Virus record (IMG/VR): IMGVR_UViG_3300045988_147571
DNA length: 64,000 bases
DNA from: a virus
Strand: one strand, 5' to 3'
The notes beneath the pieces were generated by a model. The model saw only the letters and a program-made list of their open reading frames with translations, was not told the DNA's origin and made no database searches. Below, one piece after another: positions 23,404 through 64,000 of this stretch. Each line of letters starts with the position of its first letter. Positions within the stretch are counted from its first letter, which is position 1. The position numbers and the translations under genes were made by a program.

Positions 23404-23432
23404 ATTATATCACACAGTTTGGTTTTCGCCAA
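23404..23432 (-). promoter_or_regulatory. sigma-A/sigma-70-like promoter for the antisense cassette
   Basis: The minus strand reads TTGGCG-17 nt-TATAAT with a TG extension (TGaTATAAT). The -10 lies in the last 18 nt of the intron and the -35 in the first 11 nt of TMP exon 2. Confidence 0.45.
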
Positions 23433-39100: not shown

Positions 39101-39249
39101 AAGCTCATCGCAGAATAGACTCTCTTGAAGAACAAAACACATCTCTCAAATCTGAGAATCAATCCCTTAGAAACGAAATTCTTATGCTCCAGGGACAACT
39201 ATCTCTTATAAATCAACGATTACAAAAATTGGAGGAAAAGGCATGTTAA
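33097..39249 (+). CDS. tail-associated (Tal-like) fibre protein with collagen-like segment and C-terminal S74 chaperone domain
   Basis: ATGA overlap with Dit. The N-terminal region resembles a siphovirus tip or minor structural protein. G-X-Y repeats. The C-terminus GSDRNIKEE...HYGLIAQDVE... matches the intramolecular chaperone auto-processing (peptidase S74) signature. Confidence 0.7.
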   Translation: MKINHKYDVYGRTEPSIIYLAKPGKRLFCALGGIDSSTVSLSLKTNNTAELTFTVDKYINNALTDGYEELDELMELYCDGIWFKIVDPPTISNNGMRETKEITAESYEIMLTQYKLKNFKINMGEEDSYEMMYQATHDKSKFYQIKFYDPDNEDLSFLHLVLKHADVPGWKIGYVDNITPDDDGKLLPNNICNFEVDDQNVYAFLTQEAAQGYKCVFEFDTVNMTINVYRPDSLGKDTNVVLGFRNIQNSVTISRDENLVTQFYVEGLDDYNIDAVNFGDSVITDLSYFIREPYMDTSLQEKYNAWQSYRESRREEFINLSKEYNKNLEVLTELMNRVPIDTAQTNWFGKKVEDLKDAYNANMAIIKGLEALYVDDEKNFDLEALKKSHDWPLYESIMNYTLPSIVAALQAQDETVEGFGKGNIISCVNPIVLGQDWYMVNPGTSSFQTIQIDDAPAYGITRGVKVTGTNGGIYQHNISIEPSQRYTLSCFVKGSGTFYLGYNNTGEDRKNISYNITSSWTRVYTSFNLSSRLIDVAFTGTNDFTICGMQLEMGDSPSQFGYFTQSENIIKAYETDWKLYGISELKVKISTYDSCIKELKKSGYADGYNPLSGYEEAYFTQMHQKYLDYLNLKDQAEAALKERQAEYDKAKKPEIQEKRNQIAKDVLLENFGKIQNKYSAFTDKETYIIKSLYSQSTYTNENIIVTTLDSTADAVDKSKVLYDDALEELYVESHPQYTYTDDVENVYALPEFKEYHEQLAVNDFVRVGITDTNYIKLRVIEITYNPCDLDESMEITFSNMIQYKAKRNDYNTLLNDALNTSNRNGGRVNSVNKSTTSDYVITSDAIKQIFSNPLFNSMLGGATTGGTGSGGTITAGMIVAELVKAKEGVFDKLTVDTAFMKYLDVKLVSADKITTRILEAEQANIEKLSAKIIESNQINADMINVKNLLAGNAGVGNLQAVHLTAQNVTIDQAVITDLIAKKMTVADLNTHTATADEFMIISSGKAGIAFKNSTQQFYDSTGAVRVQIGQDGTGKFNFVVKNGDKTALFDENGITQTGIPDNTIVNNMISDGTINKEKLSFTMVEPNEQGGIDISQVYLDGKKFGQQYTSFKDQTTEQITNITDPQKGQIVQSIQNSLFNEDGSSIYTKYTEYKQTVDGITQTVSNNKLDTDKKLDAASTSITQTADKLNLIATGGTGESKLELTPDFINLVSSKVVGIKADQINIDGVITAINTNGTTAGKTQIDAGAISTENVNALLIKTGKLKSNNYKDPSNTSPLYSQAGTLIDMENGAITSKNFSIDTSGEAHFKGNGEFGGKISANSGYIGGEKGFVIEAGKLYSGLKDFPTQYPSSISTNKNVYVGINGIALGDGNFMVDSNGKMYANQGEFTGKIAANDGFIGGWIISSNSLTANNGSISISPDGIHWGDYLNINSQGATFKGHITATSGSFTGDVIANSLTLGPGSTVNGLSYNDLNDRPNIPSDLSGYITVDGKIGIIQNEDQEIPSGATGFKVSKNGLLQASNAIISGTIYASSGTFAGNVTARTMTAKRSYSIYYNDVNGNPTDSREIISATNWGLTSGDLRFGLNDDCGYMISTDVGGKNTLRIMGDTLLVTAPMQIQSNCLVQSQFVIDTKTGSIPYQNMKWTPYEVNSSGNPIYLDYDNQKYFSYNGYGHNHTLLPNTEGGCAIGIGNVDKQDADVTATWCIMPYNIYTEKKTDENTNGIPVITSIKRDASATMNIGSKNNKFNCLYVNAIHMGGHTYTSLNSGGGKIASYKATASQVNYNDDPKVETSVNTAGDTLTFKFSIPKGKDGTNGIDGARGPRGYQGDPGPAGPRGEKGEPGSSGIFDSSQGGIGASYNGTHKILPKLNGSWTKNVINLGSSNYLFASVWVNGGTCSGSDRNIKEEINLYHENIEKAYMEFQPVSYKFKNFVSTDSHDRIHYGLIAQDVEDTLHKYNITNEEAGFLLIDYLDKPNEAGKLVNYGLRYGEFIPLNMHMTQKAHRRIDSLEEQNTSLKSENQSLRNEILMLQGQLSLINQRLQKLEEKAC
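38527..38637 (+). repeat. collagen-like G-X-Y repeat (37 aa)
   Basis: GKDGTNGIDGARGPRGYQGDPGPAGPRGEKGEPGSSG. Confidence 0.9.
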
Positions 39250-41968: not shown

Positions 41969-44900
41969 ATGTCGTTTAAAGATGCTAAGAAACTTGCTGC
42001 AGCTAACTCAGCAAACACGACTTTGATGACCGCTGAGTTGGCCGCAGTCACCATTGATGATGATTATACGTTATGTACTGATGGACGCTATGAAGTATAT
42101 AACAAATATAGCGATGATAATTTTTCATCAGTGGACAATTTAAAAAATATAACCGTTGACTCTTCACAGATCAATATCATGCAGGAAGAAAACAGTCAGT
42201 ATATGCCATTCAGAATTCCAAGATACTGGGATGGAATGGATCTTATGGATATGTTGATTCAGGTAAGATATCAGTCTGTGGCTCAGAGCAAAGGTCAGAT
42301 TGCAAATGTGATCAATGTTGCATCAAGTTCTACTCATATTACTTTTGGATGGCTAATTGATGCAAATGTTACTGCTTCTGCAGGTGATATTATATTTGAA
42401 ATCACAGCAACTGGCTTAAATGAAAAAGGAAAAAACTATATTTGGAGAACCAGACCAAATGGTAAGTTTACTGTTCTGGAAGGTCTGAATTATGATGGCA
42501 TCATTGAACCATCTGATGATTGGTATACAAGCTTTGTCAATATGGTCTTAGGACATGTAGCCGAAGCAAAACAGTATGCAGATGAAGCCAAAGCTTCTGC
42601 CGCTTCTATTAATGTAGATGATATTAAGGCAGATGTAACTTCTTCTGTTACAAAAAATCTAAATCAGACCGTAGCTGAGTCTCTGAAAGATTATTATACA
42701 AAAACAGAAATTGATCAGACTGTAAATGAATTAAATACTGCTATCTCCAGTATTGACAGTCTGAAAAACTTAAAAGTTGAATATGATAATACAACTGGAC
42801 ATCTCGTATTTAAAGATAAAGAGGAACAGATTGGCGAAATTACAATCAACAGTCTTTCCAATCTTGTCGTTGAATATTCTGTAGTCAATGGCAAAGGTTC
42901 ACTCGTGTTTAAGAATGGAGAAACAGAGATCCAGACTGTAGAACTTAGTTCTATTGAACCGTCTGCCGCATGGACTTCTGCTCTTAAAGAGGACATTTCT
43001 AAGAGTACAGATGAAAAGCTCTCTCCTGTTGTAGATCGTGTGTCTGCTCTTGAGACTGCAAAAGATGATCTGGCAGGCAAAGTTGAAACAAATACAACTG
43101 ATATTTCAGGTCTGAAAACAGATGTAGCTGGATTAAAAGAATCTAACGAAACAATTTCTGCTACTACTACAGAAACCAAAAATACGGTAGATATTCTGAA
43201 GCAGAATGTTTCTGGTTATGATTCTCAGTTTGAATCCATCAATAGTGACATTACTGCGATCAATGAATCTATTAAGGATTTAGGTAAAAATACAGGTCAT
43301 GAGTATGACGTTTCTTATGAAGAAAATGTTTTTACTCTGTATGAAGATGATGTAATTAAGAAACAGTTTACAATCACTGGTGGCTCTGGACCATCTGACA
43401 CTACTACGGTCACAATCGAGAGAATTACAAGTTCTGATGCGATCTTCTTAGCAGGAAACTCTGCAGTGATCGAATATAACTTTACCTCTGTAGATAATAC
43501 AGGAGATACAACCGGTAATGGTACTGCTACATGGCGTGTCGGAAGTACAACAGTTGCTACTACTGTAGCTGCTCAGGGTAAGAATAGTTTTGATATTACA
43601 CAATATCTGAAAAATGGTGCAAACTCTATTAGACTTTCTATCACTGATAGTTTTGGTACAATCGCTACTAAGACTTGGACCATTACAATTGTTGACTTTA
43701 AAATTGAGAGTATTTTTGATGATACACTCTTCTATTCAGACGAGGTAACATTTAGATATACTCCATATGGTGATATTAATAAGACTGTACATTTTGTTCT
43801 TGATGAAAAAGAAATTGCAGGAGTTGAAACAACTGCTTCTGGTAGACAGATGACTTATACTTTGGCAAAACAGAGTCATGGTGCTCACCTTCTGAAAGTG
43901 TATATGACTGCAAGTATCAATAATCAGGACGTAACTTCTGAGTCAGTATATAAAGATATTATCTGGGTTGAACAAGGAAATACTACTCCTATTATTGGAT
44001 GTTCTATGGTTGAATTTACTGCAAAACAGTACAATACAACAAGCATCAAATATGTTGTATATGATCCAGAACATAATCCTGCTACTGTAAAACTCTTTGT
44101 TGATGGCAAAGTTGCTTCTACTCTTACTGTTGGAAGAACTGCTCAGATCTGGAGCTACAAGTCTACCGAAATAGGCAAACAGTCTCTTACTATCAGTTGC
44201 CGTAGAATCACAAAGATTCTTACTGCTACTATTGAGAAACTGGATATCAATGTATCTCCGGTAACTACAAACCTTGCATTTGACTTTAATCCATCTGGTA
44301 AAAACAATGGTGAAGCTGACTGGCTGAAGATCAATGATAATCTTACAATTGAAGTGTCAGATAACTTTGATACAACAAATGGTGGTTATCAGGTCGATGA
44401 AGATGGAGATACTTATTTCTGCGTAAAAGCAGGAACTGCTGCTACTATCCCATATCAGTTATTTGCTGATGATGCAAAGAAAACTGGCAAGAACTTTAAA
44501 TTCATTTATAAATGTACAAATGTAAAGAACTATGAAGCTCAAGTACTCTCCTGTTTTGCAGATAATCTTGGTTATACTGTAAAAGCTCAGGAAGCAACAC
44601 TGAAATCTGAACAGAACGAAATCTCTGTCCCATATTGTGAAGATTACTATATGGAGCTGGAATTTAATATTCTGCCGGACAGTGAATATACAGAAATGGT
44701 TATGTGGGTTGATGGCATTCCTACAAGAGTAAAACTGTATGCCACTTCTGATAGTTTCACGCAGACAAATCCTGTAGGTATTACAATCGGTTCTGATGAC
44801 TGCGACGTTATTGTATACAGAATAAAAGCTTATACAATGAACCTCACTGATGATGAGATTCTGGATAACTTCATTGCTGATGCAAAAAATGCAAATGAAA

Positions 44901-47900
44901 TTATCAACCGATACAACCGCAATGATATTCTTGATTCTTCTGGTGGACTTGATCCTGATGTACTGGCCGAAAAATGTCCAGACTTGAGAATCATTAAACT
45001 GGAAGTACCAGTATTTACAACTGGTAAGAAAAATAAAGTACCATTTACATCTGTACAGCAGATCTATAAGAATGGTCGTCCTGTTGATAACTGGATCTCT
45101 CGTGATGGTATTCATAATGGACAGGGAACCTCTTCTGAATATTATGGTGATTCTGGTCGAAATCTGGAACTTAACTGTAAGAATGGATTTACATTCGCAA
45201 ATGATACAACTGCCGATGTTTATTCTATGGATGAAAATGCTATTGGAATCAACTATTTCAATGTCAAAGTAAATATTGCTTCTTCTGAGAATATCAATAA
45301 TGCAGGTCTTCAAGGAGAATATCAGGAATTCAACCCATATATCCGTCCTGCTAGAAAGAAAGATCCTCGTGTACGTGATACTATGCAGTTCTATCCTTGT
45401 GTTGTATTCTTAAAAGAAACAGATGTAGATAATGCTGTAGAGTTCAAAGACGGTCAGTGGCACTTCTATGCTGCAGGTGATATTGGTAACAGTAAGAAGA
45501 ATACAGTTGCACAGGGAATGGATCCAGAGAATCACAAAGAATTCATTGTTGAAGTGTCAAATAATACTGATCCTCAGTGCCGTTTCTTATCTGATGACTT
45601 ATCAAATGAAGAATGGGGTGGAGATACTTCATTCGAAATGAGATATCAGAATCCAAATTGTACAAAAGAAGAAATTCAGGCTGGCAGACAGGCTTGGAAC
45701 GATCTTTTGACTTGGGTTGTAAATGCTGATTCTGAAACATTTGTAAAAGAGTTTGAACAGCACTTTATTAAAGACTCATTACTCTTCTATTACTTATTTA
45801 CCGAAAGACATACTATGGTAGATAACAGAGCAAAAAATACTTTCTGGCATACAGAAGATTTGGTTCACTGGGATTTATGTATGGATTATGATAACGATAC
45901 TGCAATGGGTAATGATAATGAAGGTGGATTAACTCTTACTTACGGATATGAAGATACTGATACTATTGGAACAAAATCAGTCTTTAATGCATCTGATAGT
46001 AAAGTGTTCTGTTATATCAGAGATTACATGTTTGATGATCTGCAGAGTATGTTCCTTCAGATGGAGGCCAAACTTACATGGTCTGCAAACCGTATCTTAA
46101 ATAAATTCGAAACTCTTCAGAATTATAAACCGGAACGTCTCTGGATCGCTGATATGAGAAGAAAGTATTTCAGACCTTACGAGGATAAAGGTACGACTTC
46201 TTATCTGGAAATGATGAACGGAAGCAAGAAACAGCAGAGACGACAGTTCCAGAAATATCAAGAGAAATATATTGCATCTAAATATGTAGGTTCTACTACT
46301 ACCTCAGATGTAATCACAATCCGTGGTTACACTCCAACAAACTGGACTGGTGTAAAACCGGATGGTACATTCCATATTGTTCCTTATGCTGATTCTTATG
46401 TTGATGTAAGATTTGGTTCTAACCTTGTTCGTCAAAGAGCTAAGAGAGGTCAGACTTATACAGTCAAATCTCCTATTGCTGCTATGAACGATACAGAGGT
46501 CTATGTATATAATGCATCTTTGATGCAATCCATTGGTGATATTGCGCCATTCTATCCGGGATATACAAATTTCAATCAGGGTGTAAAAATGACAGACATT
46601 CTTATTGGTTCTGATGTTGAAGGATATCAGAATACAAATATGAATGATTTCTCAATCGGACAGAATGTTCTTCTGGAACGACTGAATCTTGAGAATCTGC
46701 CAAACCTGAAAAAGACAATCGACCTTTCTAACTGTAAAAATCTCGAAGAGTTTCTAGCAGAAGGATCTGGTATTACAGGTGTTATCTTTGCTCCTGGCGG
46801 AAAGATTGAAACTGCTCATCTTCCTGCCATCGCATCTCTTACCGGAAAGAACCTGTATAGATTGACCGATCTTACTATAACAAGTTATGCAAATCTTACT
46901 ACTCTGTCTCTTGATAACTGCAATACTTTGGATGCAAAAGACATTATCAATAAAGCTACTGGATTAACCAGAGTTCGTGTAACTGGCATCAATTGGGAAC
47001 TGGACGATACTACTCTGCTTGACAGATTAGCAAAAATGACTGGTATTGATGATAACGGATATAACTCTGTACATTCTGTTCTTATAGGAACTGTACACAT
47101 TCCTGTTATGAGACAGCAAAGACTGGATGAATTCGCTGAATTATGGCCAGATTTAGAGATTACCTACGATTCAATTATCACTCAGTTCAAAGTAACATTT
47201 GTCAACGACGATGAAGAAAATACAGTTCTTGATATCCAGTACGTTGATAAAGGTGCAAATGCAGTTGATCCTATTACAAGAGAAATTGATCCGATTCCTA
47301 CTCCTACCAAAGAAAGCACAATCAAACTTGATTATACATTCAAAGGCTGGAATGGATCTCTAACTGGAATCTTCGCTGACAGAACTATCAAAGCTGTATA
47401 CAATAGCAAAGTGCGTGAATATACAGTAAAATATGTTTCTAAAGGATTAACTCTACAGGAGTCTACTGGACAGTATGGTTCTTATATTAAGTATGAAGGT
47501 GACACTCCTACTTATACTGCTGAGGAATCTGCTTATAAATATAATCTATTCAAAGGTTGGGACAAATCTGGATTCGTTGATGGTGAGAAAACTATCAATG
47601 CTGTGTATGAAACCTGCGAATATGTAGATGGATACTTTGACGGAAAAGATCTGTCAAATATGACTCAGGTTGAGCTTTATACTCTTATGAAAATGGGACT
47701 TGAAACAAAAGCTCTGTCTCTTAAAGATACATTAGATTTTAAGCTTGGTGTTGATTATTCCTATGGAGATATTGAAGAACATGAAGTAATCTCTGCTTCT
47801 ACTAAGTTTGATGGAACAAATTATATTGACACTGGACTGAAAATCATGGAGAAAGATAGAGACTTTACTGTTGCTATTGACTTTGAATTTGATGCAGGAA

Positions 47901-48859
47901 ATAATGTCAATGCTACTCTTGCTCAGTGCTTCCAAAGCGATGGTTCTAATGGATTCAGACTGTGGTATTCTCAAGAACCTAGATTTTCATGGAATACTGA
48001 TAGTGTATCTCCTTCTGCTGGAACAAACAGAGAAATCGTAGTATTCCGTCATGAAGCTGGAAGTCAGAAGCTTTATGTGTACAATTCAAACATGACTGGG
48101 AAAGAAGTATCTTCTACTACTCTGAATGCGATCAGGATTCCAGAGCATAGTTCCACTCTCGTATTTGGATGTTCTAAAGCTGACGACGGAGCATATGAAA
48201 ACTTTGCAAAAGGCACTGTACATTGGGCTAAGGTTTGGTATGCGGATCTTGGTGAAGAACAATGTATGGATATTGCTTCTTGGATTCATGAAATTATTCC
48301 AATGGAAGTGGCTAAGTTTAAAGGATATTATCTGTCTGACGTTGCTTCAAAGAGAGCTAACATTACATTTGTTGCTTCTAATCTACTTGGTACAGAAAAA
48401 CCTTATAATAATAAGAGCACAAATGCAGGTGGATGGGCTGATTCTACATTGAATACTTGGCTGAATACCAGACTGCTTAAAGCGATCTCTCCTTTATGGA
48501 AAGCATTGATTAAACCAGTCAAAGTATACTCTTCTATCGGTAATAAATCCAATGACACATCTGTATCTAACTGTAGATTCTATATTCCGTCTTTATATGA
48601 AGTTGATCCTACATCTGCTTCTGAACCATATATCTCTGAAACAAATGCTCCTATTGTTTATTTCACAGATGATGATACCAGAAAGAAAGCAAAATCTTCT
48701 GCTCCTACGGAGTATAAATCTTACTGGACCAGATCTCCGAATGCTACAGTTGCAAATTGGTTATATACAGTCAATGAAGCCGGTGGAACATATGGATTCT
48801 CTTATCCAGGACAGAATTCTGGAATCTTACTTATGTTCTCAATTTCAAGTGAGGGGTAA
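41969..48859 (+). CDS. giant multidomain fibre or receptor-binding protein (2296 aa)
   Basis: Coiled-coil stretch, Ig-like repeats, leucine-rich repeats (LERLNLENLPNLKKTIDLSNCKNLEEF...), two FKGW-type Listeria-Bacteroides repeats, and a LamG-like segment (FDGTNYIDTGLKIMEKDRDFTVAIDFEF). Confidence 0.6.
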   Translation: MSFKDAKKLAAANSANTTLMTAELAAVTIDDDYTLCTDGRYEVYNKYSDDNFSSVDNLKNITVDSSQINIMQEENSQYMPFRIPRYWDGMDLMDMLIQVRYQSVAQSKGQIANVINVASSSTHITFGWLIDANVTASAGDIIFEITATGLNEKGKNYIWRTRPNGKFTVLEGLNYDGIIEPSDDWYTSFVNMVLGHVAEAKQYADEAKASAASINVDDIKADVTSSVTKNLNQTVAESLKDYYTKTEIDQTVNELNTAISSIDSLKNLKVEYDNTTGHLVFKDKEEQIGEITINSLSNLVVEYSVVNGKGSLVFKNGETEIQTVELSSIEPSAAWTSALKEDISKSTDEKLSPVVDRVSALETAKDDLAGKVETNTTDISGLKTDVAGLKESNETISATTTETKNTVDILKQNVSGYDSQFESINSDITAINESIKDLGKNTGHEYDVSYEENVFTLYEDDVIKKQFTITGGSGPSDTTTVTIERITSSDAIFLAGNSAVIEYNFTSVDNTGDTTGNGTATWRVGSTTVATTVAAQGKNSFDITQYLKNGANSIRLSITDSFGTIATKTWTITIVDFKIESIFDDTLFYSDEVTFRYTPYGDINKTVHFVLDEKEIAGVETTASGRQMTYTLAKQSHGAHLLKVYMTASINNQDVTSESVYKDIIWVEQGNTTPIIGCSMVEFTAKQYNTTSIKYVVYDPEHNPATVKLFVDGKVASTLTVGRTAQIWSYKSTEIGKQSLTISCRRITKILTATIEKLDINVSPVTTNLAFDFNPSGKNNGEADWLKINDNLTIEVSDNFDTTNGGYQVDEDGDTYFCVKAGTAATIPYQLFADDAKKTGKNFKFIYKCTNVKNYEAQVLSCFADNLGYTVKAQEATLKSEQNEISVPYCEDYYMELEFNILPDSEYTEMVMWVDGIPTRVKLYATSDSFTQTNPVGITIGSDDCDVIVYRIKAYTMNLTDDEILDNFIADAKNANEIINRYNRNDILDSSGGLDPDVLAEKCPDLRIIKLEVPVFTTGKKNKVPFTSVQQIYKNGRPVDNWISRDGIHNGQGTSSEYYGDSGRNLELNCKNGFTFANDTTADVYSMDENAIGINYFNVKVNIASSENINNAGLQGEYQEFNPYIRPARKKDPRVRDTMQFYPCVVFLKETDVDNAVEFKDGQWHFYAAGDIGNSKKNTVAQGMDPENHKEFIVEVSNNTDPQCRFLSDDLSNEEWGGDTSFEMRYQNPNCTKEEIQAGRQAWNDLLTWVVNADSETFVKEFEQHFIKDSLLFYYLFTERHTMVDNRAKNTFWHTEDLVHWDLCMDYDNDTAMGNDNEGGLTLTYGYEDTDTIGTKSVFNASDSKVFCYIRDYMFDDLQSMFLQMEAKLTWSANRILNKFETLQNYKPERLWIADMRRKYFRPYEDKGTTSYLEMMNGSKKQQRRQFQKYQEKYIASKYVGSTTTSDVITIRGYTPTNWTGVKPDGTFHIVPYADSYVDVRFGSNLVRQRAKRGQTYTVKSPIAAMNDTEVYVYNASLMQSIGDIAPFYPGYTNFNQGVKMTDILIGSDVEGYQNTNMNDFSIGQNVLLERLNLENLPNLKKTIDLSNCKNLEEFLAEGSGITGVIFAPGGKIETAHLPAIASLTGKNLYRLTDLTITSYANLTTLSLDNCNTLDAKDIINKATGLTRVRVTGINWELDDTTLLDRLAKMTGIDDNGYNSVHSVLIGTVHIPVMRQQRLDEFAELWPDLEITYDSIITQFKVTFVNDDEENTVLDIQYVDKGANAVDPITREIDPIPTPTKESTIKLDYTFKGWNGSLTGIFADRTIKAVYNSKVREYTVKYVSKGLTLQESTGQYGSYIKYEGDTPTYTAEESAYKYNLFKGWDKSGFVDGEKTINAVYETCEYVDGYFDGKDLSNMTQVELYTLMKMGLETKALSLKDTLDFKLGVDYSYGDIEEHEVISASTKFDGTNYIDTGLKIMEKDRDFTVAIDFEFDAGNNVNATLAQCFQSDGSNGFRLWYSQEPRFSWNTDSVSPSAGTNREIVVFRHEAGSQKLYVYNSNMTGKEVSSTTLNAIRIPEHSSTLVFGCSKADDGAYENFAKGTVHWAKVWYADLGEEQCMDIASWIHEIIPMEVAKFKGYYLSDVASKRANITFVASNLLGTEKPYNNKSTNAGGWADSTLNTWLNTRLLKAISPLWKALIKPVKVYSSIGNKSNDTSVSNCRFYIPSLYEVDPTSASEPYISETNAPIVYFTDDDTRKKAKSSAPTEYKSYWTRSPNATVANWLYTVNEAGGTYGFSYPGQNSGILLMFSISSEG

Positions 48860-54739: not shown

Positions 54740-55282
54740 ATGGCAATTTACAAAGGTGAACAATGTCTTGCCGGAGTTGGTAAGAATGCAACTATTAAAA
54801 TCGGTACTGCTAAAACAGGTACTTCAGCTGCAGTAACCAATTCTGGTACAGATACAGATGCAATATTAAATTTTACACTGCCCAAAGGTGATCAGGGAGT
54901 TGGAATTTCAAGTGTTATCCCTCATTATCTTGCAAGTCCTAAATCACAGGGAGTAACCAGATCAACTACTGGATGGGCGACTTCCGCTCAGGTTATGACA
55001 TCTACAAACAAATATTTGTGGTGCTATCATGAATTTGTTTTGACAAACAATAATCATTTGTACACTACTCCAACAGTTATAGGTGTTTATGGAGATAAAG
55101 GTGATCCGGGTACAACTGATTATAATGGATTACAGAATAAACCGGTCGTTAATGGAGCTGTAACTGCTTATCAGTCAGATATTATGAAATCTCAGTTAAG
55201 AAATGTGACATTCTCTACTGAAGAACCTAAGACATCTGATGGTAAGCCTGGTGATATGTGGGTGGTGTATGTCGATGAGTAA
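54740..55282 (+). CDS. small fibre or adaptor protein
   Basis: GDKGDPG collagen-like bit. The C-terminus is EEPKTSDGKPGDMWVVYVDE. Stop/start overlap ATGAGTAA with the next gene. Confidence 0.45.
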   Translation: MAIYKGEQCLAGVGKNATIKIGTAKTGTSAAVTNSGTDTDAILNFTLPKGDQGVGISSVIPHYLASPKSQGVTRSTTGWATSAQVMTSTNKYLWCYHEFVLTNNNHLYTTPTVIGVYGDKGDPGTTDYNGLQNKPVVNGAVTAYQSDIMKSQLRNVTFSTEEPKTSDGKPGDMWVVYVDE

Positions 55283-57983
55283 TATTAAAACTGGTGATAT
55301 TTTAAACTTTGGTTATACTGGTGCTGTTCAGAGTGTAACATTGCCTAAAGGAACATATAAATTGGAGTGTTGGGGCGCTCAGGGTGGAAATAGCAATCAA
55401 TCAAACGGAACTTATGGTAATGGTGGAAAAGGTGGATATTCTACTGGTATTTTAAATGTTTCAACTAATACCACTATATATATAACAGTAGGAGGGCAAG
55501 GTCAAAATGGTGCCCTTAATACTAGAACTGCTGGTGGTTTTAACGGTGGTGGTGATGGTTATGGTACTAACAACTCTGGCGTAGGTGGCGGAGGTGGTGG
55601 AGCTTCTGATATTTCTTTAATGCATCCTGTATTTTCACAGTCATCTTATTTTATAAATAAAATTCGAGATACAAACTCACTATTAAGTAGAATTATCGTA
55701 GCAGGTGGCGGAGGATCTGCAGGATATGATGTTAGTAATAATGCAGCTAATGGTGGTGCTGGCGGAGGTACTACAGGACAAGATGGATTATCAAACCGCG
55801 TTTATCATGGCACTGGCGGAAAACAAACTACTTTTGGTACAGGAGGATCATCAGAGGAATCTAATAGGTATTCCGTCCAAGCTAAATTCGGATGTGGAGC
55901 ATCAGCCAGTAATTCTACAGATGTAGCGCCTGGTGGAGGCGGTGGCTGGTATGGAGGTGGATTACATTGTGATTCTGCTGGTGGCGGTTCTGGTTATGTC
56001 TACACCTCTTCTACAGCCTCTAATTACCCATCAGGTTGTTTATTAAACTCTTCTTATTACTTAACCGATGCCAAAACCATAGCAGGCAATAATTCTTTTG
56101 TTTCTCCCACAGGTTCATCTGAAACCGGACACTCAGGCAATGGATATTGTCGAATTACTGTTATTAAATGTAAGAGTACTGCGCTATATACCAGAATAAA
56201 TAATTCAATGAAAAAGGCTATTGCTTTTTATTTTAAATTAAATAATAACAAAATGTACGGTGTTGGTTCTGCTAATTTTAATGGTACTGTTATGAATTTT
56301 GATTATACTGGTTCAGTTCAAACTGCTACATTGGCTCCTGGAACATATAAGTTAGAATGCTGGGGTGCTCAAGGCGGGAATTGCTATTGGAGTAGCGTGG
56401 AACGCCCTGGAAGTTTAGGCGGGTATAGTTCGGGCATTTTAAAAATCACTTCTAAAACAAATTTATTTTGTTACGTTGGTGGCGCCGGTGAAAGACGGAC
56501 AATTGTTTCGATGGGTGGTGGTGGCTTCAATGGTGGAGGTCATGCATATAGTTATACATCTTCTAATCCGTCAGGAGCTGGTGGAGGAGGTTCAGATATA
56601 AGGATTGGAACCGATTCTCTATATTCAAGAGTTATCGTAGCAGGTGGAGGAGGCGGAGCAGGATATGATAATTCTGGAAATTATGGGTATGGTGGAGGAA
56701 CAGTTGGGGGCACTCAAACTGTTAACAGTAATTCCGAACGACAGGCAAATGGTGGTTCTCAAACTAACGGTGGTATAAATAAATCTGGATATACTACTTC
56801 AGGAGCTTTTGGTGTCGGAGGAAATGGAACTCAACAATGGACTTCCGGCGGCGGTGGCGGCTGGTATGGAGGAGCTGGTTGTTACTGTGATTATGCTGGC
56901 GGAGGTTCAGGTTATGTATATACTTCATCTACAGCTAAAAACTATCCATCTGGATGTTTGTTAAACTCTTCTTACTATCTCACTAATGCTTCTACTATTG
57001 CTGGCAACAAATCATTCCCTTCTCCTACAGGTTCTACAGAAACAGGACACTCAGGTAACGGCTATGTAAGAATCACTAAATTAACAGATGTAATATATCT
57101 CACTCATGCTAATAACGACATAATGAATTTTGATTACACAGGTTCCACACAATCTAAAACTCTAAAACCAGGTACATATACAATAGAATGCTGGGGTGGC
57201 CAAGGAGGAAGTTATAGTAGTTACATAGGCGGATACGGTGGTTATTCCAAAGGCACAATTACTCTTACTAAGGTGACTACTGTTTATGTGTCTGTTGGCG
57301 GAGCTGGATCTTCCTCTTCTACTACTGCAGGATTCAATGGTGGAGGAGCTGGTATTTCTTCTGGTAGAGGTGGCGGCGGCGCCACAGATGTTCGTATAGG
57401 TCAAAATTCTCTATATTCAAGAGTTATCGTGGCTGGGGGCGGAGGAGGCGCTGGAGTTACAGGTGCTAATGTTAATCCTTGTGGTTGTGGCGGTGGAGAA
57501 TATGGTGGAGATGGCTATAATAATAATACCACTGGTTCCTATACTACTGGTCAAAACAGATCTGGTGGTAGCGCTTCTCAAACTGCAGGTGGAATAACTT
57601 GGAATACAGGCGCTCAGGCTACTTTTGGTCAAGGCGGAAATGCTTCTGGCTACTCTTGTGGAGGAGGTGGTGGCGGCTGGTACGGTGGAGGCGGTGCATA
57701 TGATAGTGACTCTGACTCTGATGGACGTTGGGGTGGAGGTGGATCTGGATATGTTTATACCTCTTCTACAGCTAAAAATTATCCTAACGGATGCCTACTC
57801 AATTCCACTTATTATTTAACGAATGCTCAAACAATAGCCGGAAACACTTCTTTCACTTCTCCTACAGGATCAGCAGAAACTGGACATACAGGTAACGGAT
57901 TCTGCAGAATTACAAATTTGAACCCAACACAATATGGATTATACGTAAAAACTAACTCAGGTTGGAAACACATAGATTTATAA
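55275..57983 (+). CDS. protein with three tandem glycine-rich-domain (GRD) modules
   Basis: Three copies of about 270-290 aa. Each reads NFDYTG..Q..TL.PGTYKLECWGAQGG ... GGFNGGG ... GGGGGASDIR ... SRVIVAGGGGGAG ... GGGGGWYGG ... GGGSGYVYTSS ... GHSGNGYCRIT. Confidence 0.7.
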   Translation: MSNIKTGDILNFGYTGAVQSVTLPKGTYKLECWGAQGGNSNQSNGTYGNGGKGGYSTGILNVSTNTTIYITVGGQGQNGALNTRTAGGFNGGGDGYGTNNSGVGGGGGGASDISLMHPVFSQSSYFINKIRDTNSLLSRIIVAGGGGSAGYDVSNNAANGGAGGGTTGQDGLSNRVYHGTGGKQTTFGTGGSSEESNRYSVQAKFGCGASASNSTDVAPGGGGGWYGGGLHCDSAGGGSGYVYTSSTASNYPSGCLLNSSYYLTDAKTIAGNNSFVSPTGSSETGHSGNGYCRITVIKCKSTALYTRINNSMKKAIAFYFKLNNNKMYGVGSANFNGTVMNFDYTGSVQTATLAPGTYKLECWGAQGGNCYWSSVERPGSLGGYSSGILKITSKTNLFCYVGGAGERRTIVSMGGGGFNGGGHAYSYTSSNPSGAGGGGSDIRIGTDSLYSRVIVAGGGGGAGYDNSGNYGYGGGTVGGTQTVNSNSERQANGGSQTNGGINKSGYTTSGAFGVGGNGTQQWTSGGGGGWYGGAGCYCDYAGGGSGYVYTSSTAKNYPSGCLLNSSYYLTNASTIAGNKSFPSPTGSTETGHSGNGYVRITKLTDVIYLTHANNDIMNFDYTGSTQSKTLKPGTYTIECWGGQGGSYSSYIGGYGGYSKGTITLTKVTTVYVSVGGAGSSSSTTAGFNGGGAGISSGRGGGGATDVRIGQNSLYSRVIVAGGGGGAGVTGANVNPCGCGGGEYGGDGYNNNTTGSYTTGQNRSGGSASQTAGGITWNTGAQATFGQGGNASGYSCGGGGGGWYGGGGAYDSDSDSDGRWGGGGSGYVYTSSTAKNYPNGCLLNSTYYLTNAQTIAGNTSFTSPTGSAETGHTGNGFCRITNLNPTQYGLYVKTNSGWKHIDL

Positions 57984-57998: not shown

Positions 57999-58277
57999 AT
58001 GCCAATTATATTTCATGGAACAGGTAGTGGCGGCTCTGCTAAAAAACTAAAAACCGCACGAACTATTAATGGTACGAATTTTGATGGTACAGCTAATATT
58101 ACTACTTCTAGTTGGGGAACAACAAGAACCGTTACTGTAGGAAATACAAGTAAATCTGTAAATGGTTCTGGAAATGTAAGTTGGTCTATGGATGAAATAG
58201 GTATTCATGTGTCTAGTTCTGAGCCTACTGCTTCTCAGGGAAAGAATGGTGATATTTGGATTGTTTATGATAGTTAA
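57999..58277 (+). CDS. small fibre or adaptor protein
   Basis: FDGTANIT motif. The C-terminus SSSEPTASQGKNGDIWIVYDS is paralogous to the end of 54740-55282. Confidence 0.45.
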   Translation: MPIIFHGTGSGGSAKKLKTARTINGTNFDGTANITTSSWGTTRTVTVGNTSKSVNGSGNVSWSMDEIGIHVSSSEPTASQGKNGDIWIVYDS

Positions 58278-58288: not shown

Positions 58289-60697
58289 ATGGTGAGAGTT
58301 ATGGCTTGTAGTTCTGGATGCGGTACAAGTTGCTCTACGAATTGTTCTACTACTTCGTCTGGAAACTGCGGTGGATGTGGTACTGCGTGTTCTACAAGTT
58401 GCCAAACCACTGCTAGTGGTCAAAGTTGTAGTGGATGTGGAACATTGTGCTCAAGTAGTTGTGGTGATAGTTGTCATGGCACCTGTAGCGGTAGTTGCGT
58501 CGGTACTTGTAGTGATACCTGCACCGCTGGTTGTAACACTACTTGTTATTATACTTGCACCGGCACTTGTGATAGCACTTGTTCTGCAAGTTGCGCAAAT
58601 GATTGTTCCGGTACTTGCTCAGGAGGCTGTCAAGGTTGTACTGCTTCATGTCAAAATGATTGTTCTGGTTGTTCTGGTTGCGGAGGATCTTGTTCACACA
58701 GCTGTTCAGGCGATTGCGAAGGCGGCTGTTACGGATCATGCAATACTACTTGTACCGCTGATTGTCAAAATGACTGTAGCTCTGGATGTAATGATGGATG
58801 TAAAGATTCTTGCAAAAACACTTGTAAAGATACATGTACCGGTACATGCGTAGGCGGATGCGGTGCTTCTTGTGATAATACCTGTAACACTGGATGTGAA
58901 AACTCTTGTAGCTCTAATTGCACATCATTATGTAGCATAGCTGGTACTTATGGTGAATCAGAAACCAATATATTAAACTTTGATTACACTGGTGCTGTTC
59001 AGAGTGTAACATTGAAACCCGGGAGATATGTGCTTGAATGTTGGGGTGCTCAAGGTGGTAATGGATGTACGGGAAATTCATATAAAGGCGGTGCCGGAGG
59101 ATATTCCAAAGGTACTCTCACACTAGCCAAAACAGAAACTTTATACATATATGTTGGTGGACAAGGAGTTAGCGCTGCAGCTTCTGGCAATGGAAATATT
59201 CGAGAAGGTGGATTCAACGGTGGTGGATCTGGACGTGATTGGGGTAGTACTGGTCATGGCGGTGGCGGAGGTGGTGGCGCCTCTGATATTCGAATTATAA
59301 CTGATAGCTTCTATGCTCGTGTTATAGTCGCCGGCGCTGGTGGTGGAGCTTCTGATAATGGAGCAGGCGGTGCTGGCGGCGGCACTTCTGGGATTTCATC
59401 ATCCTCTTCCGCTGGAACAGCAACTGGAGGCAGCGGTTTTGGTCAAGCGGCGGCATCAAGTTGCACTTCCTATGAATGTGGTGGCGGTGGCGGTGGCTGG
59501 TATGGCGGCTATGGCGGATCTTCAGAAAACTATCCTGGCGGTGGTGGATCAGGTTACGTATATACATCTTCTTCTGCTTCTAACTACCCTTCTGGGTGTC
59601 TCTTAAATTCTTCATACTATCTCACCGATGCTCAAACCATTGCAGGAAATCAAACTTTTAAATCACCTACCAATACAAATGAAACGGGTCATTATGGTAA
59701 TGGCTATTGTCGAATTACATGTTATGTTCCTAAGAAATCATATTTCTGCAAAGTGGGTAATACTATAAAACAATCTCCTGTTGTAATTGCAAAAGCAAAT
59801 AATAAATTATTCGACACAGGAGCCGCAGTAATGAATCTTAGTTATACAGGAACTTCTCAAAATGTAGTCCTTCCAGCAGGTACGTATAAATTTGAATGCT
59901 GGGGAGCACAGGGAGGTTATAGATCATCTTCTACTTATGGCGGTAAAGGTGGTTACTCCGTCGGAACTATTACGCTTACACAAACAACTAATCTATTTGT
60001 ATATGTTGGAGGTTCAGGTAACTCTGCTACTGCTTATACTAATGGTATATATGCTGGTGGATTTAACGGCGGTGGTTATAGATATGGATATAAAGGTGGC
60101 GGTGGTGCTACTGATATTCGTATTGGTAAAGATGATCTTTATGCAAGAATAATTGTTGCAGGCGGTGGAGGTTCTGATGGTGCTAGTAATAAAACAGGTA
60201 TGTATGGTGGAGGACTCGAAGGTGGAACTACTACTGAAAGTTGTGGTTCTGGTGGATATGGAGGAACACAAACAGGAAATACGTGGCTAACTACTACTCG
60301 AACCACTTCTGCTACATCTACTTCTAACTGTTATGCTGGATTTGGATTCGGCGGAAATGGATGTTATAGTTCTTCTGGCTATGCAGGTGCTGGCGGTGGA
60401 GGCTGGTATGGAGGTTCCGGTTCATATCCAGATGGCTCTGGCGATGATGACAGAGGAGGAGGCGGCGGCTCAGGTTATGTTTACACTGCAAAAACTGCTG
60501 CAAATTATCCTTCTGGAAATTACGTCAACTCTTCTTATTATCTCACTGACGCTTCCACTGTCGCAGGAAATCAATCATTTACTGCTCCAGATGGATCAAC
60601 TGAAACTGGTCATTCCGGTGATGGATTTTGTCGTATTACAAGGCTCAAAAATGCGACAGTATATGTAAAACAAAATAATGTATGGATCAAGAGCTAA
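58289..60697 (+). CDS. Cys-every-fourth-residue domain fused to two GRD modules
   Basis: The N-terminal 209 aa hold about 52 Cys, mostly C-x3-C. Two modules of the same family as 55275-57983 follow. An alternative start is ATG 58301. Confidence 0.7.
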   Translation: MVRVMACSSGCGTSCSTNCSTTSSGNCGGCGTACSTSCQTTASGQSCSGCGTLCSSSCGDSCHGTCSGSCVGTCSDTCTAGCNTTCYYTCTGTCDSTCSASCANDCSGTCSGGCQGCTASCQNDCSGCSGCGGSCSHSCSGDCEGGCYGSCNTTCTADCQNDCSSGCNDGCKDSCKNTCKDTCTGTCVGGCGASCDNTCNTGCENSCSSNCTSLCSIAGTYGESETNILNFDYTGAVQSVTLKPGRYVLECWGAQGGNGCTGNSYKGGAGGYSKGTLTLAKTETLYIYVGGQGVSAAASGNGNIREGGFNGGGSGRDWGSTGHGGGGGGGASDIRIITDSFYARVIVAGAGGGASDNGAGGAGGGTSGISSSSSAGTATGGSGFGQAAASSCTSYECGGGGGGWYGGYGGSSENYPGGGGSGYVYTSSSASNYPSGCLLNSSYYLTDAQTIAGNQTFKSPTNTNETGHYGNGYCRITCYVPKKSYFCKVGNTIKQSPVVIAKANNKLFDTGAAVMNLSYTGTSQNVVLPAGTYKFECWGAQGGYRSSSTYGGKGGYSVGTITLTQTTNLFVYVGGSGNSATAYTNGIYAGGFNGGGYRYGYKGGGGATDIRIGKDDLYARIIVAGGGGSDGASNKTGMYGGGLEGGTTTESCGSGGYGGTQTGNTWLTTTRTTSATSTSNCYAGFGFGGNGCYSSSGYAGAGGGGWYGGSGSYPDGSGDDDRGGGGGSGYVYTAKTAANYPSGNYVNSSYYLTDASTVAGNQSFTAPDGSTETGHSGDGFCRITRLKNATVYVKQNNVWIKS
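58307..58933 (+). repeat. protein-level C-x3-C periodic low-complexity region
   Basis: CSSGCGTSCSTNC...CKDSCKNTCKDTCTGTCVGGCGASCDNTCNTGCENSCSSNCTSLC. Codons are degenerate, so it is not a clean DNA tandem repeat. Confidence 0.9.
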
Positions 60698-60716
60698 GGA
60701 AACTTAGCTCTTATTT
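60691..60716 (+). terminator. Rho-independent terminator or attenuating hairpin
   Basis: GAGCTAAG-GAAA-CTTAGCTC hairpin followed by TTATTT. Confidence 0.6.
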
Positions 60717-60735: not shown

Positions 60736-61107
60736 ATGAAACTTATTTTAAAAGACAATACTGAAATTACAGTAACTCGTATGAACAATACTTATGCATA
60801 CGAAAATTTCGTAGATGGTATGGGTTATGACATGAATAAAAATATTTCTGCAAGTTTTACTATTTTCGACTCCGATAAAAGCTTTGAAGAATTAAAAACT
60901 ATTTTATCAGGAGAAAATAGAGAAGGATTTAGACTTGCTTATGGCGTAACAGAAAAAGATTTCCCAGGAATGAAAATCGAATCTATTTCTGAGGATATTG
61001 CCAATGATAGAAGTATTATCACAATTTCTATGAATGGAACTAAAGTAGAAGAAAAAACAGAGAACTCAGCTACAGATGCTGAAAAAGATACAAATAAAGA
61101 AGTTTAA
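60736..61107 (+). CDS. hypothetical protein (123 aa)
   Basis: RBS AAGGAGGA. First gene of the radical SAM operon. Confidence 0.45.
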   Translation: MKLILKDNTEITVTRMNNTYAYENFVDGMGYDMNKNISASFTIFDSDKSFEELKTILSGENREGFRLAYGVTEKDFPGMKIESISEDIANDRSIITISMNGTKVEEKTENSATDAEKDTNKEV

Positions 61108-61141
61108 TTAGTCAACAAAGGATAGAAAGGAATAAACAGAT

Positions 61142-61471
61142 ATGAGAAGAATTATTGTAAAAATTGATCGTGACAAAGCAGTTGAACTTGAAAGAGTTAA
61201 CTTTGAATTAAGTTTTACAAAGGATGTTATACAAAGACTTATTGAGTCCCATCCGAATGATACAGAGCTTATTAATGGAGAAGTATTCCAGAAATATAAT
61301 CGTCAGGGCGCAGAACTTCAGGCTAAATACTCTCTCCTTGCTGCCGAAATTGAAAGAGAATATATCCCTGAGAAATTAAAAGGTCATAAGTATACATGGA
61401 ATATTCCTAATGGTACAAATGACTTTATAATTGATATTCAGTGTAATTGTGAAATCGAGGGAATTGAATGA
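61142..61471 (+). CDS. hypothetical protein translationally coupled to the radical SAM enzyme
   Basis: ATGA stop/start overlap with 61468. The C-terminus is DIQCNCEIEGIE. Confidence 0.45.
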   Translation: MRRIIVKIDRDKAVELERVNFELSFTKDVIQRLIESHPNDTELINGEVFQKYNRQGAELQAKYSLLAAEIEREYIPEKLKGHKYTWNIPNGTNDFIIDIQCNCEIEGIE

Positions 61472-62802
61472 GAAAACATGAACAATATTCTGATCAGATA
61501 GCTAGGTTGTATCCGCCAGAGAAGCCTGAGACCGATGACGGACAACGAATTTTAACTCAAAGCGTTACTTTTCAAGTAACTGATGATTGCAATCTCGCAT
61601 GCAAATATTGTTATCAAACCTGCAGAAATAAGCGTTCGATGTCATTTGAAACTGCAAAGAAATTTGCTGATTTAATTATTTCAGGAGATAAAGGCTTTTC
61701 TAAGTATATCAACCCAGAGAAATCTCCAGGATTAGTTGTGGATTTTATTGGAGGAGAACCTTTTCTTGAAATAGAATTGATTGACCAGATTTGCACATAT
61801 ATCATGGATCGATTGATAGAACTTGATCATCCATGGGCCATGAAAACTAAATTTTCTATATGTTCTAATGGTACTCTTTATAGAGAACCTAAAGTGCAGG
61901 ATTTCTTACGTAAATGGGCCAATAGATTATCTTTTTCAGTCACTATAGATGGTAACAAGGAATTACATGATTCTTGTAGAGTATTCCCTGATGGAAGTCC
62001 AAGTTATGATCTTGCAGTTGATGCAGCTACAGACTGGATGAAAAAAGGTTATTATATGGGAAGTAAGATTACTATAGCTCCTGGCAATATAAGTTATCTT
62101 TATGATGCAATAGTTCATATGACAGAACTTGGCTATAATGAAATTAATGCTAACTGTGTATTTGAAGAGGGATGGACTACTATGCATGCTACTGTTCTTT
62201 ATGATCAAATGAAACGTATATCTGATTATTTCTTAGAAAAAGATTATGATTTCGAACATGACTTTTTCTGCTCTTTATATAATGATGATTTCTTTAAACC
62301 AAAAGATGTGGCAGAGATTCAAAATTGGTGCGGTGGGACAGGTTCCGCTATGATTTCATGTGATCCTGATGGACATATTTTTCCTTGCATCAGATATATG
62401 GAATCTTCTCTTAATGGACAACAAGAACCTTATTCTATTGGAGATGTAGATAATGGGATAGGCTACTGTGATTGTTATAAATGCAGACTTAATTGCCTTA
62501 ATTCTATTGATCGTAGAACTCAGAGTACAGATGAGTGCTTCTACTGCCCTATTGCAGAAGGCTGTGCATGGTGTTCAGCTTACAACTATCAAGTATTTGG
62601 AACTCCGGATAAAAGAGCGACATTTATCTGTGTTATGCACAAAGCTCGTGCTTTAGGTAATTATTACTTCTGGAATAAATATTATAGAAAACATGATCTG
62701 AAAAAACGTATGGAGATTTTTGTGCCTGATGAATGGGCACTTGAGATTATCTCTGAATCAGAACTTAATATGTTGAAAGAATTGGAAAGAGAGGACGATT
62801 AG
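61468..62802 (+). CDS. radical SAM enzyme with SPASM domain (anSME or peptide-maturase family)
   Basis: CxxxCxxC in DDCNLACKYCY. SPASM-type motifs WCGGTGSAMISCDPDGHIFPC and CFYCPIAEGCAWC. Confidence 0.85.
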   Translation: MRKHEQYSDQIARLYPPEKPETDDGQRILTQSVTFQVTDDCNLACKYCYQTCRNKRSMSFETAKKFADLIISGDKGFSKYINPEKSPGLVVDFIGGEPFLEIELIDQICTYIMDRLIELDHPWAMKTKFSICSNGTLYREPKVQDFLRKWANRLSFSVTIDGNKELHDSCRVFPDGSPSYDLAVDAATDWMKKGYYMGSKITIAPGNISYLYDAIVHMTELGYNEINANCVFEEGWTTMHATVLYDQMKRISDYFLEKDYDFEHDFFCSLYNDDFFKPKDVAEIQNWCGGTGSAMISCDPDGHIFPCIRYMESSLNGQQEPYSIGDVDNGIGYCDCYKCRLNCLNSIDRRTQSTDECFYCPIAEGCAWCSAYNYQVFGTPDKRATFICVMHKARALGNYYFWNKYYRKHDLKKRMEIFVPDEWALEIISESELNMLKELEREDD

Positions 62803-62816
62803 TCCTCTCTCTTTTT
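62788..62816 (+). terminator. Rho-independent terminator
   Basis: AGAGAGGAC-GATTA-GTCCTCTCT hairpin followed by CTTTTT. Confidence 0.7.
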
Positions 62817-62902: not shown

Positions 62903-64000
62903 ATGACAGAAATCAAAGGTATTGATGTTTCCCGTTGGAACGGAACAATTGATTGGAAAACTGTTGCTAATTATGGCATGGGCTTTGCTATCCTAAGAAT
63001 CACAGAAAAAGGAAATATTGTTGATAGCACATTCGAACCAAACTACAAAGGCTGCATTGAGAATAAGATTCCTGTTGGAGTCTATAAATACAGCTATGCT
63101 ACTACTATTGCTCAGATTGAAGATGAAGCAAATGTAGTTATTAAAACATTGAATAAAAGAAAACTGGATTATCCAGTATTTCTTGATATAGAGGATAAAT
63201 GTCAGGAGAATTTATCTGACAGTTTAATGATGAAAATGATTGAAACGTTTAGAGCTATTATTGTCAAAGCTGGATATAAATTTGGTATTTATTGCGGTTA
63301 TTCTTGGTATCAGAACCAGTTACCAGAGGGCGCGAAAAAGTACGATTGCTGGGTTGCTCGATATCCTAATAATGATACCGGTGAATTACAGGAAAGATTA
63401 AGAGTTCCTGCTTCTACTGGTGTTATTGGATGGCAATATTCTAGTAAGGCAACCATTCCTGGAATGCCAACAAAAACCGATCGAAGTGTATTCTATAAAG
63501 ACTATTCTAAATCTTCTACTACTTCTACAAACTCTCCCAAACCAACAACTACACAAGGAAGTGATGCTATGAACAAAGAAAAGGCTATTGATGCTCTTAT
63601 TGCTTGCGCTGAAAATGAGGTTGGATATTTAGAAAAGAAATCTAACTCTCAGCTTGATGATAAGACTGCAAATGCGGGTTATAATAACTATACTAAGTAC
63701 TGGAGAGACGTATATCCAGAATATCAGGGACAGGCATGGTGTGCTGCATTTGTGAGCTGGTGTATGATGAAAACATTCGGTCTTGAGACAGCTAAAAAGC
63801 TCCTTAAACATTGGCCTTATGTATATTGTCCTACTCTTGGAAATCTCTTTACAAAGTATGCAAATCCACAGCGAGGAGATATTGTAATCTTCTATCGTAA
63901 TGGCACATTTACACATACAGGATTAGTTACTAAAGTTGAAGGGGATAAGTTCTACACAATTGAAGGTAATACCTCAGGAGGATCTTCTATCGTTCCAAAT
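62903..64000 (+). CDS. endolysin, GH25 muramidase plus C-terminal CHAP/NlpC-like domain (partial, runs off window end)
   Basis: Not in the ORF track because it has no stop in the window. RBS GAAGGAGG. MTEIKGIDVSRWNGTIDWKTVANYGMGFAILRITEKG...FLDIED is a GH25 signature. After a Ser/Thr linker, QAWCAAFVSW...FTHTGLV...IEGNTSGG fits a Cys-His amidase or peptidase. Confidence 0.8.
   Translation, partial: MTEIKGIDVSRWNGTIDWKTVANYGMGFAILRITEKGNIVDSTFEPNYKGCIENKIPVGVYKYSYATTIAQIEDEANVVIKTLNKRKLDYPVFLDIEDKCQENLSDSLMMKMIETFRAIIVKAGYKFGIYCGYSWYQNQLPEGAKKYDCWVARYPNNDTGELQERLRVPASTGVIGWQYSSKATIPGMPTKTDRSVFYKDYSKSSTTSTNSPKPTTTQGSDAMNKEKAIDALIACAENEVGYLEKKSNSQLDDKTANAGYNNYTKYWRDVYPEYQGQAWCAAFVSWCMMKTFGLETAKKLLKHWPYVYCPTLGNLFTKYANPQRGDIVIFYRNGTFTHTGLVTKVEGDKFYTIEGNTSGGSSIVPN

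Follow-up and report, generated by a model that had tools for sequence, protein, structure and literature searches.

A phage fibre-module cassette encodes a radical SAM/SPASM enzyme of the CXXX-repeat target family together with its predicted cysteine-array substrate

The maturation system most like the one described here is known as an in-silico pairing of radical S-adenosylmethionine (SAM) enzymes of the family TIGR04115 with target proteins of TIGR04114 and PF27846, and was reportedly first described by Haft and Basu in 2011. Among characterised enzymes, PapB, the freyrasin maturase (NF047865), offers the nearest mechanistic analogy; it acts on repeated Cys-X3-Asp motifs and forms several small thioether rings. 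The closest solved structure is that of CteB, the SCIFF maturase (TIGR03974; PDB 5wgg), which carries an N-terminal recognition domain before residue 93, the RRE (RiPP recognition element, RiPPs being peptides that are made on the ribosome and then modified). We analysed a stretch of 64,000 nucleotides of DNA from a gut phage (IMG/VR record IMGVR_UViG_3300045988_147571), hereafter the window, in which a 444-amino-acid (aa) radical SAM enzyme with a SPASM domain is encoded downstream of an 802-aa protein that begins with a periodic cysteine array (CXXX array). An earlier sequence-only reading had proposed that this enzyme modifies a virion or fibre protein. The genes and signals concerned are the following.

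58289..60697, + strand: gene (open reading frame, ORF) of the 802-aa protein, the predicted substrate, with an N-terminal CXXX-repeat domain followed by two ALK/LTK-type glycine-rich domain (GRD) modules
58307..58933, + strand: CXXX-repeat domain, residues 7-215 of the 802-aa protein, recognised by its Cys spacing and conserved caps
58967..60679, + strand: the two GRD modules, about residues 227-478 and 514-797 of the 802-aa protein, recognised by PF12810 and PHROGs
60689..60712, + strand: terminator-like hairpin that overlaps the 802-aa gene's stop codon (10-bp stem, -16.6 kcal/mol)
60736..61107, + strand: gene (ORF) of a 123-aa protein, the semi-conserved fourth gene of the system
61142..61471, + strand: gene (ORF) of the 109-aa partner, with a 4-nt ATGA overlap with the enzyme start
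61468..62802, + strand: gene of the 444-aa radical SAM/SPASM enzyme, assigned to TIGR04115 by ORF and family score
62788..62810, + strand: intrinsic-terminator-like hairpin that closes the operon (9-pair stem with 5 GC pairs, tail CTTTTT)

The locus shares with the TIGR04115/TIGR04114/PF27846 system an enzyme that passes the family threshold, an adjacent protein with Cys at every fourth position and a complete SPASM domain. It differs in that the array is built into a phage fibre-module protein of 802 aa, as the N-terminal domain ahead of two glycine-rich modules, and in that the array lies below the TIGR04114 cutoff and the 109-aa and 123-aa proteins fall outside all family models. Compared with PapB, the phage substrate has 52 Cys in about 210 residues instead of about six, and i+4 is occupied by the next Cys instead of Asp or Glu. 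CteB has the same radical SAM plus SPASM layout, whereas the phage enzyme is without an N-terminal RRE and is accompanied by a separate 109-aa partner that does not have the RRE fold. The array is very probably the substrate of the enzyme, as far as sequence comparison can tell, and, since the enzyme belongs to a family predicted to modify Cys repeats, this phage probably cross-links one of its own fibre proteins. Such a pairing is already a known in-silico prediction, since the names of TIGR04115, TIGR04114 and PF27846 encode it.

We assigned the enzyme by comparison with the NCBIfam models. It scored 533.3 bits on TIGR04115, "radical SAM peptide maturase, CXXX-repeat target family" (cutoff 350, E 3.5e-160, model positions 1-359 of 359), and matched phrog_1802 in PHROGs. 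The CNLACKYC cluster motif (C41/C45/C48) and the full SPASM domain reported earlier were both present at 61468-62802, the latter with the signature C288-x13-G-x4-C307, C357-x2-C360-x5-C366-x2-C369 and C388 and the C-terminal Cys motifs CGGTGSAMISCDPDGHIFPC and CFYCPIAEGCAWC. All three radical SAM Cys and all seven SPASM Cys were invariant among 15 homologues (53-81% identity). The next-best models were PapB (170.4 bits over nearly the whole model, cutoff 340), which is thus the best-scoring characterised relative, followed by SCIFF/CteB (97.9 bits, cutoff 425), QhpD (97 bits) and CcpM (95 bits); all of these scores were below the respective cutoffs, and all of these models describe thioether or Cys-directed maturases. 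Anaerobic sulfatase-maturating enzymes (anSMEs) likewise combine radical SAM and SPASM domains and act on Cys or Ser of a protein substrate, and formylglycine formation of this type had been offered as an option. The enzyme reached only 38.1 bits on TIGR03942 (cutoff 349) and 36.4 bits on PRK13745 (cutoff 484), with only its N-terminal half matched, and these scores rule out an anSME identity; the formylglycine option is unsupported. Its family placement is therefore with the CXXX-repeat-target maturases and not with the anSMEs. The best solved relative was CteB (E 3e-19). Because this alignment begins at CteB residue 93, past the CteB recognition domain, the phage enzyme, whose catalytic domain begins at about residue 30, has no fused RRE.

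The protein collection contained 3865 homologues of the enzyme, many of them interrupted by inteins (P0003, P0006, P0011, P0014, P0023-P0027 and others; Pfam Intein_splicing, LAGLIDADG_3, PT-HINT and Hom_end_hint). In one related locus (L040:8807-11206), the intein lies inside the radical SAM cluster motif (CNLACSY, then C...intein...HN, then CYQ), and the third cluster Cys is the +1 extein residue because the intein splits the motif after CNLACSY.

The 802-aa protein contains 65 Cys, of which 52 lie within residues 7-215, in agreement with the earlier count of about 52 for the upstream Cys-periodic gene. The distance between neighbouring Cys was four in 44 of 51 gaps, for which the chance at the Cys density of the array is about 6e-36; Cys makes up 24% of the array compared to 1.35% of the other long + strand ORFs of the window. 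Conservation in the array was limited to the Cys positions and to a cap at either end (MACSxGCGTSC at the start, C(Y/F)G or C..YG at the end), and the positions between the Cys were small or polar and free to vary (+1 mostly S/G/T; +2 mostly G/T/S/N; +3 mostly S/T/G/D). The array could be aligned end to end with stand-alone CXXX targets; a mixed alignment in which stand-alone CXXX proteins aligned onto the glycine-rich part was discarded. Among the 120 relatives listed, almost all array homologues carried PF27846 (tSAM_targ_Cxxx_rpt), and most were stand-alone proteins of about 165-390 aa. The PF27846 match of the L001 orthologue was faint, and the stand-alone homologue in L005 scored 31.2 bits on TIGR04114, above the cutoff of 20. 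Recent repeat expansion was ruled out at the DNA level, where only weak 9- and 12-nt arrays were present, and the absence of a DNA-level tandem repeat indicates that selection maintains the Cys periodicity. AlphaFold2 (AF2) predicted no fold for the array (pLDDT about 27; with the first glycine-rich module the mean was 42 and the model was unusable).

In the nearest relative (IMGVR_UViG_3300045988_164214, L009:6800-7520), the array was 85% identical to that of the window (58289-58960) and differed in length, whereas identity was 97.6% over the glycine-rich part and 99% for the enzyme, the partner and the 123-aa protein. The array thus evolves much faster than its neighbours.

The C-terminal 580 residues of the 802-aa protein matched PF12810 (ALK_LTK_GRD) in two stretches (E 2.5e-97), and the protein matched phrog_1589, phrog_5811 and phrog_7388. 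The likeness is to the glycine-rich domain of ALK/LTK receptors (PDB 7lrz); the direct match to ALK was weak. Both modules are paralogous to the three modules of the upstream 914-aa protein. By analogy with polyglycine-rich phage adhesins, such as gp38 of phage S16, they may act in adhesion. No second CXXX gene and no type-A N-terminal domain were found in the window.

We then assessed the co-occurrence of enzyme and array across related loci (numbered L001 onwards). At least 566 IMG/VR contigs encoded relatives of the cassette. All 90 of the 90 loci whose upstream sequence reached at least 2.5 kb contained a CXXX ORF, so that none of the related phages in this informative set had the enzyme but no CXXX protein, and a 109-aa homologue lay directly upstream of the enzyme in 99 of 99. 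One locus without an upstream array (L105) encoded a 440-aa CXXX protein 5.7 kb downstream. A reverse scan anchored on the glycine-rich domain yielded 64 new phage loci, of which 44 had both CXXX protein and radical SAM enzyme, 19 had neither, none had the enzyme alone and one had the CXXX protein alone, with its array cut by the contig end (Fisher's exact p = 2e-15; many of these loci are close relatives and therefore not independent). The 19 loci with neither show that glycine-rich phage proteins also exist without the system. In the loci examined, the enzyme appears only together with a Cys array. The earlier pairing of the enzyme with the neighbouring Cys-periodic fibre-type protein thus held in all the in-silico tests that the earlier reading had named as able to refute it. 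Among GenBank phages, blastn with the cassette gave no match, and tblastn gave only unannotated human-faecal phage contigs (35-37% identity) and distant radical SAM genes of Erwinia and Salmonella jumbo phages (24-26% identity).

Several arrangements of CXXX genes were observed in these loci. L160 (12115-15243) has a tandem pair of type-A CXXX paralogues (442 and 561 aa) beside one radical SAM gene, which shows that the largest CXXX targets reach the size of proteins and that duplication of them is possible. In 34 of 34 loci where a long CXXX ORF comes after a short type-A CXXX protein, an arrangement seen at L005:8327-9661, both lie in one reading frame. A single TAA separates the two ORFs in 17 of the 34 (L061:8134-9350 and 16 similar loci of the L059-L099 group), and the second ORF there lacks an ATG, GTG or TTG ahead of the repeat (...GCTTSIKA, the stop, then KEENERACTSSC...); in L049, L054 and L056 the two parts are one protein. 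The L061-type split could reflect stop-codon read-through, non-canonical initiation or a decaying split gene. Gene callers also mishandle CXXX-coding DNA: an intact 816-aa ORF was called as three genes (L003/L004:6753-9203), and the genes called at L104:1978-3168 are in the wrong frame and on the opposite strand. Alternative frames are open across the array of the window as well (58371-58853 and 58225-58423), and, because several of them stay open, CXXX targets are probably under-annotated in public data.

The 109-aa protein, which ends in DIQCNCEIEGIE and has a conserved C-terminal CxCEI motif, had been described as a possible substrate or partner. Its family was present in 103 of 105 loci, with the gene always directly upstream of the enzyme gene; in the loci examined in detail (the window, L001 and L005) the reading frames overlap, which for the window confirms the 4-nt ATGA overlap reported earlier. 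Among 28 sequences the family was conserved over its full length; 18 positions were invariant and the C-terminal CxC motif was nearly so. In the distant members of L100 and L102 this motif was not kept. AF2 gave a confident model (pLDDT 90.9) with a strand, a two-helix hairpin and two strands. No RRE/PqqD-like fold was found for it in the PDB or BFVD: the best PDB Foldseek match (E 0.33) was of coiled-coil type only, BFVD matches were confined to uncharacterised gut-phage proteins, and a profile search of PDB sequences gave nothing below E 0.16. An RRE identity was accordingly ruled out by the fold. Pfam, NCBIfam and PHROG models gave no match to the 109-aa or the 123-aa protein. The 109-aa family comprised 256 representative clusters; nearly all of the 150 listed were stand-alone proteins of about 95-120 aa, none was fused to the enzyme, and the few longer ones, mostly about 205-220 aa with two matched stretches, are apparently tandem duplications. 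Of the two roles suggested for the protein, that of a conserved partner stood and that of a substrate is not plausible, its only candidate sites being two semi-conserved Cys; it is a conserved accessory partner that evolves like an enzyme subunit. We infer that it is obligatory and replaces the missing recognition domain. The 123-aa family occurred in 82 of 105 related loci, either after the CXXX gene and before the partner or directly after the radical SAM gene, and its product may be an assembly factor.

The 802-aa gene ends 39 nt 5' of the operon, in which three + strand genes (123, 109 and 444 aa) are bounded by a terminator-like hairpin and a strong terminator. The operon had been described as the enzyme and the 109-aa protein, both of which are present; the 123-aa gene starting at 60736, left undiscussed, belongs to it as well. 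The single hairpin placed at 60691-60716 proved real and lies at 60689-60712 (z = -3.15, weak T tail). The terminator at 62788-62810, which overlaps the enzyme stop codon (62800-62802), is stronger. No promoter-like site was found between the hairpin and 60736, and the hairpin is possibly an attenuator between the structural gene and the maturase genes. Further features of the window are as follows.

3182..6247: large terminase, structural arm of the phage
6259..7803: portal, structural arm of the phage
19160..21721: tape measure, structural arm of the phage
23419..32094, 33097..39249 and 41969..48859, + strand: giant ORFs of 2891, 2050 and 2296 aa, tail region
54740..55282, + strand: 180-aa fibre-type protein (ORF) preceding the 914-aa gene
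55239..57983, + strand: 914-aa protein (ORF, PF12810) with three GRD modules and no CXXX domain
57999..58277, + strand: 92-aa fibre-type protein (ORF) preceding the 802-aa gene, counterpart of the 180-aa protein
62903..64000, + strand: endolysin with GH25 and CHAP domain matches, starting at 62903 and continuing past the window end

The gene order is terminase, portal, tape measure, giant fibre-type proteins, a 1060-aa fibre protein, the two GRD proteins, the operon and the endolysin. Collagen repeats and an intramolecular-chaperone domain (Peptidase_S74) are present in the 2050-aa giant protein, DUF6273 at the end of the 2296-aa protein, and PF22337 (Phage_fiber_rpt) in the 1060-aa protein. 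The reported location between fibre genes and the endolysin was thus borne out, with the PF22337 and Peptidase_S74/collagen proteins before the operon and GH25 plus CHAP after it. Two paralogous cassettes follow one another, each with a small fibre-type protein (180 or 92 aa) and then a multi-module glycine-rich protein, and only the second has the Cys array. The 180-aa and 92-aa proteins both end in a G(K/N)xGD(I/M)W(I/V)VY motif (C-terminal GDxWxVY common to both), and the L010 homologue of the 92-aa protein is 233 aa long with fibre-type repeats. Terminase profiles account for no more than about residues 80-470 of the 1021 aa encoded by the large-terminase ORF (3182-6247), and what remains could represent an additional domain or an insertion.

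In four further phage types, the cassette lay beside or among tail or fibre genes, directly before lysis genes in two of them, and it was between fibre and lysis genes wherever lysis genes were nearby.

L100, siphovirus-type prophage: cassette follows a collagen-like fibre of 1373 aa and precedes holin and amidase
L102, P2-like prophage of Anaerobacterium chartisolvens (GCA_003337415): cassette after the tail-fibre gene, before the endolysin
L005, myovirus type: cassette after baseplate and fibre genes
L104, prophage: cassette after a BppU_N baseplate protein

The comparisons show the cassette to be chiefly an element of phage tail modules, and a very abundant one. No peptidase or exporter was found beside it in any locus with gene calls. 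In L005, the radical SAM cassette is followed by a fibre-type protein of 760 aa and, about 0.4 kb downstream of the latter, by a reverse transcriptase (RVT_1; 14795-16072, and likewise in L006-L008), which suggests that a diversity-generating retroelement belongs to this tail module.

The mechanism that we propose is as follows. The 802-aa fibre-module protein would be made in quantity late in infection, and read-through of the weak hairpin would give lower levels of the 123-aa, 109-aa and 444-aa proteins. The enzyme, without a fused RRE, and its coupled 109-aa partner would act on residues 7-215 of the 802-aa protein in the reducing, anoxic cytoplasm before lysis. Reductive cleavage of SAM would yield a 5'-deoxyadenosyl radical, which would take a hydrogen from a carbon in a small residue nearby (Ser, Thr, Gly, Asn or Asp), and the Cys sulfur, held at an auxiliary cluster, would then close the thioether. 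With up to about 50 such closures, a segment unable to fold alone would become a ladder of small rings. Such a ladder would serve as a rigid spacer that withstands proteases and redox change and bears the two glycine-rich (receptor-binding-type) modules on the distal fibre, and its thioether links could form in the cytoplasm, where disulfides cannot. We regard the view that the phage carries its own copy of the "CXXX-repeat target" maturation system of radical SAM/SPASM type, working in this way, as evenly poised between right and wrong. Thioethers are a reasonably likely product, judged solely from the nearest characterised relatives PapB, CteB and QhpD, and membership of the 802-aa protein in the virion fibre is plausible to a similar degree, judged solely from its context. 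More tentatively, many phages of gut anaerobes may use RiPP-type radical SAM machinery to staple a fibre or adhesin segment into a thioether ladder of about 50 rings as a part of the virion, a wider claim against which we would at present lean.

Several observations weigh against this proposal. The array of the window scored 9.1 bits on the TIGR04114 target-repeat model, below its cutoff of 20. The term "fibre or adhesin" derives from gene position only, because the phage GRD families are listed as "unknown function" in PHROGs, where none of the phage PF12810 proteins has an assigned function. Stand-alone type-A targets keep an N-terminal domain of roughly 110 aa across unrelated backbones, which is leader-like rather than suggestive of virion attachment, and the junction of tail-fibre and lysis genes is a classic site for non-structural accessory genes too. 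The acceptor carbon and the chemistry cannot be read from homology because the enzyme is below the PapB and SCIFF cutoffs, and the role given to the partner is a guess because it does not resemble known RiPP recognition elements. A full-text literature search found no experimental paper on the CXXX-target radical SAM family or on radical SAM-modified phage fibres; Clostridia genomics preprints mention ranthipeptide clusters and not the CXXX-target system.

The same enzyme and substrate might instead make a very large RiPP-like accessory cargo, for example a metal binder, adhesive or antibacterial agent, encoded at the fibre/lysis junction and freed at lysis, which in the window would simply be fused to a glycine-rich binding module. 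Most targets are indeed stand-alone (165-560 aa), the leader-like domain at their N-terminus is kept in siphovirus, P2-like and other backbones alike, and the cassette travels between backbones as a unit. However, a peptidase or exporter is absent from all loci with gene calls, the array of the window lineage is covalently joined to modules paralogous to those of the adjacent fibre-module protein, and the cassette is beside or among tail or fibre genes in all backbones examined, so that we consider this explanation unlikely. An array modified by chemistry other than thioether formation (formylglycine, dehydroalanine-type oxidation, C-C cross-links, epimerisation or methylation) would fit an enzyme that reaches the curated cutoff of no characterised thioether synthase model, and the SPASM class catalyses many reactions. 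Its top characterised relatives, though, all form Cys thioethers (PapB, CteB/SCIFF and QhpD), the anSME models reach only 36-38 bits, Cys is the sole conserved residue of the repeat, and no Pfam sulfatase domain was detected in 12 window proteins (the cassette, the fibre-module proteins from 49139 on, two giant upstream ORFs and the endolysin). We judge such chemistry to be improbable, about as much so as the accessory cargo.

That the 109-aa protein is the real substrate, with the Cys-periodic neighbour incidental or serving as an enzyme-independent metal or disulfide element, appears highly improbable. Two semi-conserved Cys near its C-terminus and the translational coupling to the enzyme would suit a substrate, but the family is conserved like a folded subunit (the 18 invariant positions and the confident AF2 fold), drops the CxC motif in L100 and L102, and stands beside an enzyme that co-occurs with a CXXX protein without exception and whose family, TIGR04115, is defined by its CXXX target. 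Modification of the array by the enzyme, most plausibly as thioethers in a fibre protein, is the reading that we prefer.

Three features are recorded neither in the family names nor in the searchable literature: that the array is fused to a large glycine-rich protein of the fibre module, that the cassette consistently lies by tail-fibre genes in all phage backbones examined, and that the non-RRE partner is conserved. We know of no radical-enzyme cross-link in a structural protein of a virus, so that a thioether ladder in a fibre, if true, would be the first, and a ladder of about 50 rings would be by far the most heavily cross-linked radical SAM substrate known to us. Genome-mining tools probably count these prophage cassettes as "ranthipeptide" clusters in Clostridia. 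These results give the uncharacterised CXXX-target radical SAM family a concrete case in which the target lies inside a large fibre-module protein. If the thioether ladders are real, they would represent a new kind of covalent reinforcement in phage structural biology and a RiPP enzyme acting at about 50 sites of a substrate as large as a protein, and may offer protein engineering a route to hyper-stapled, protease-resistant rods.

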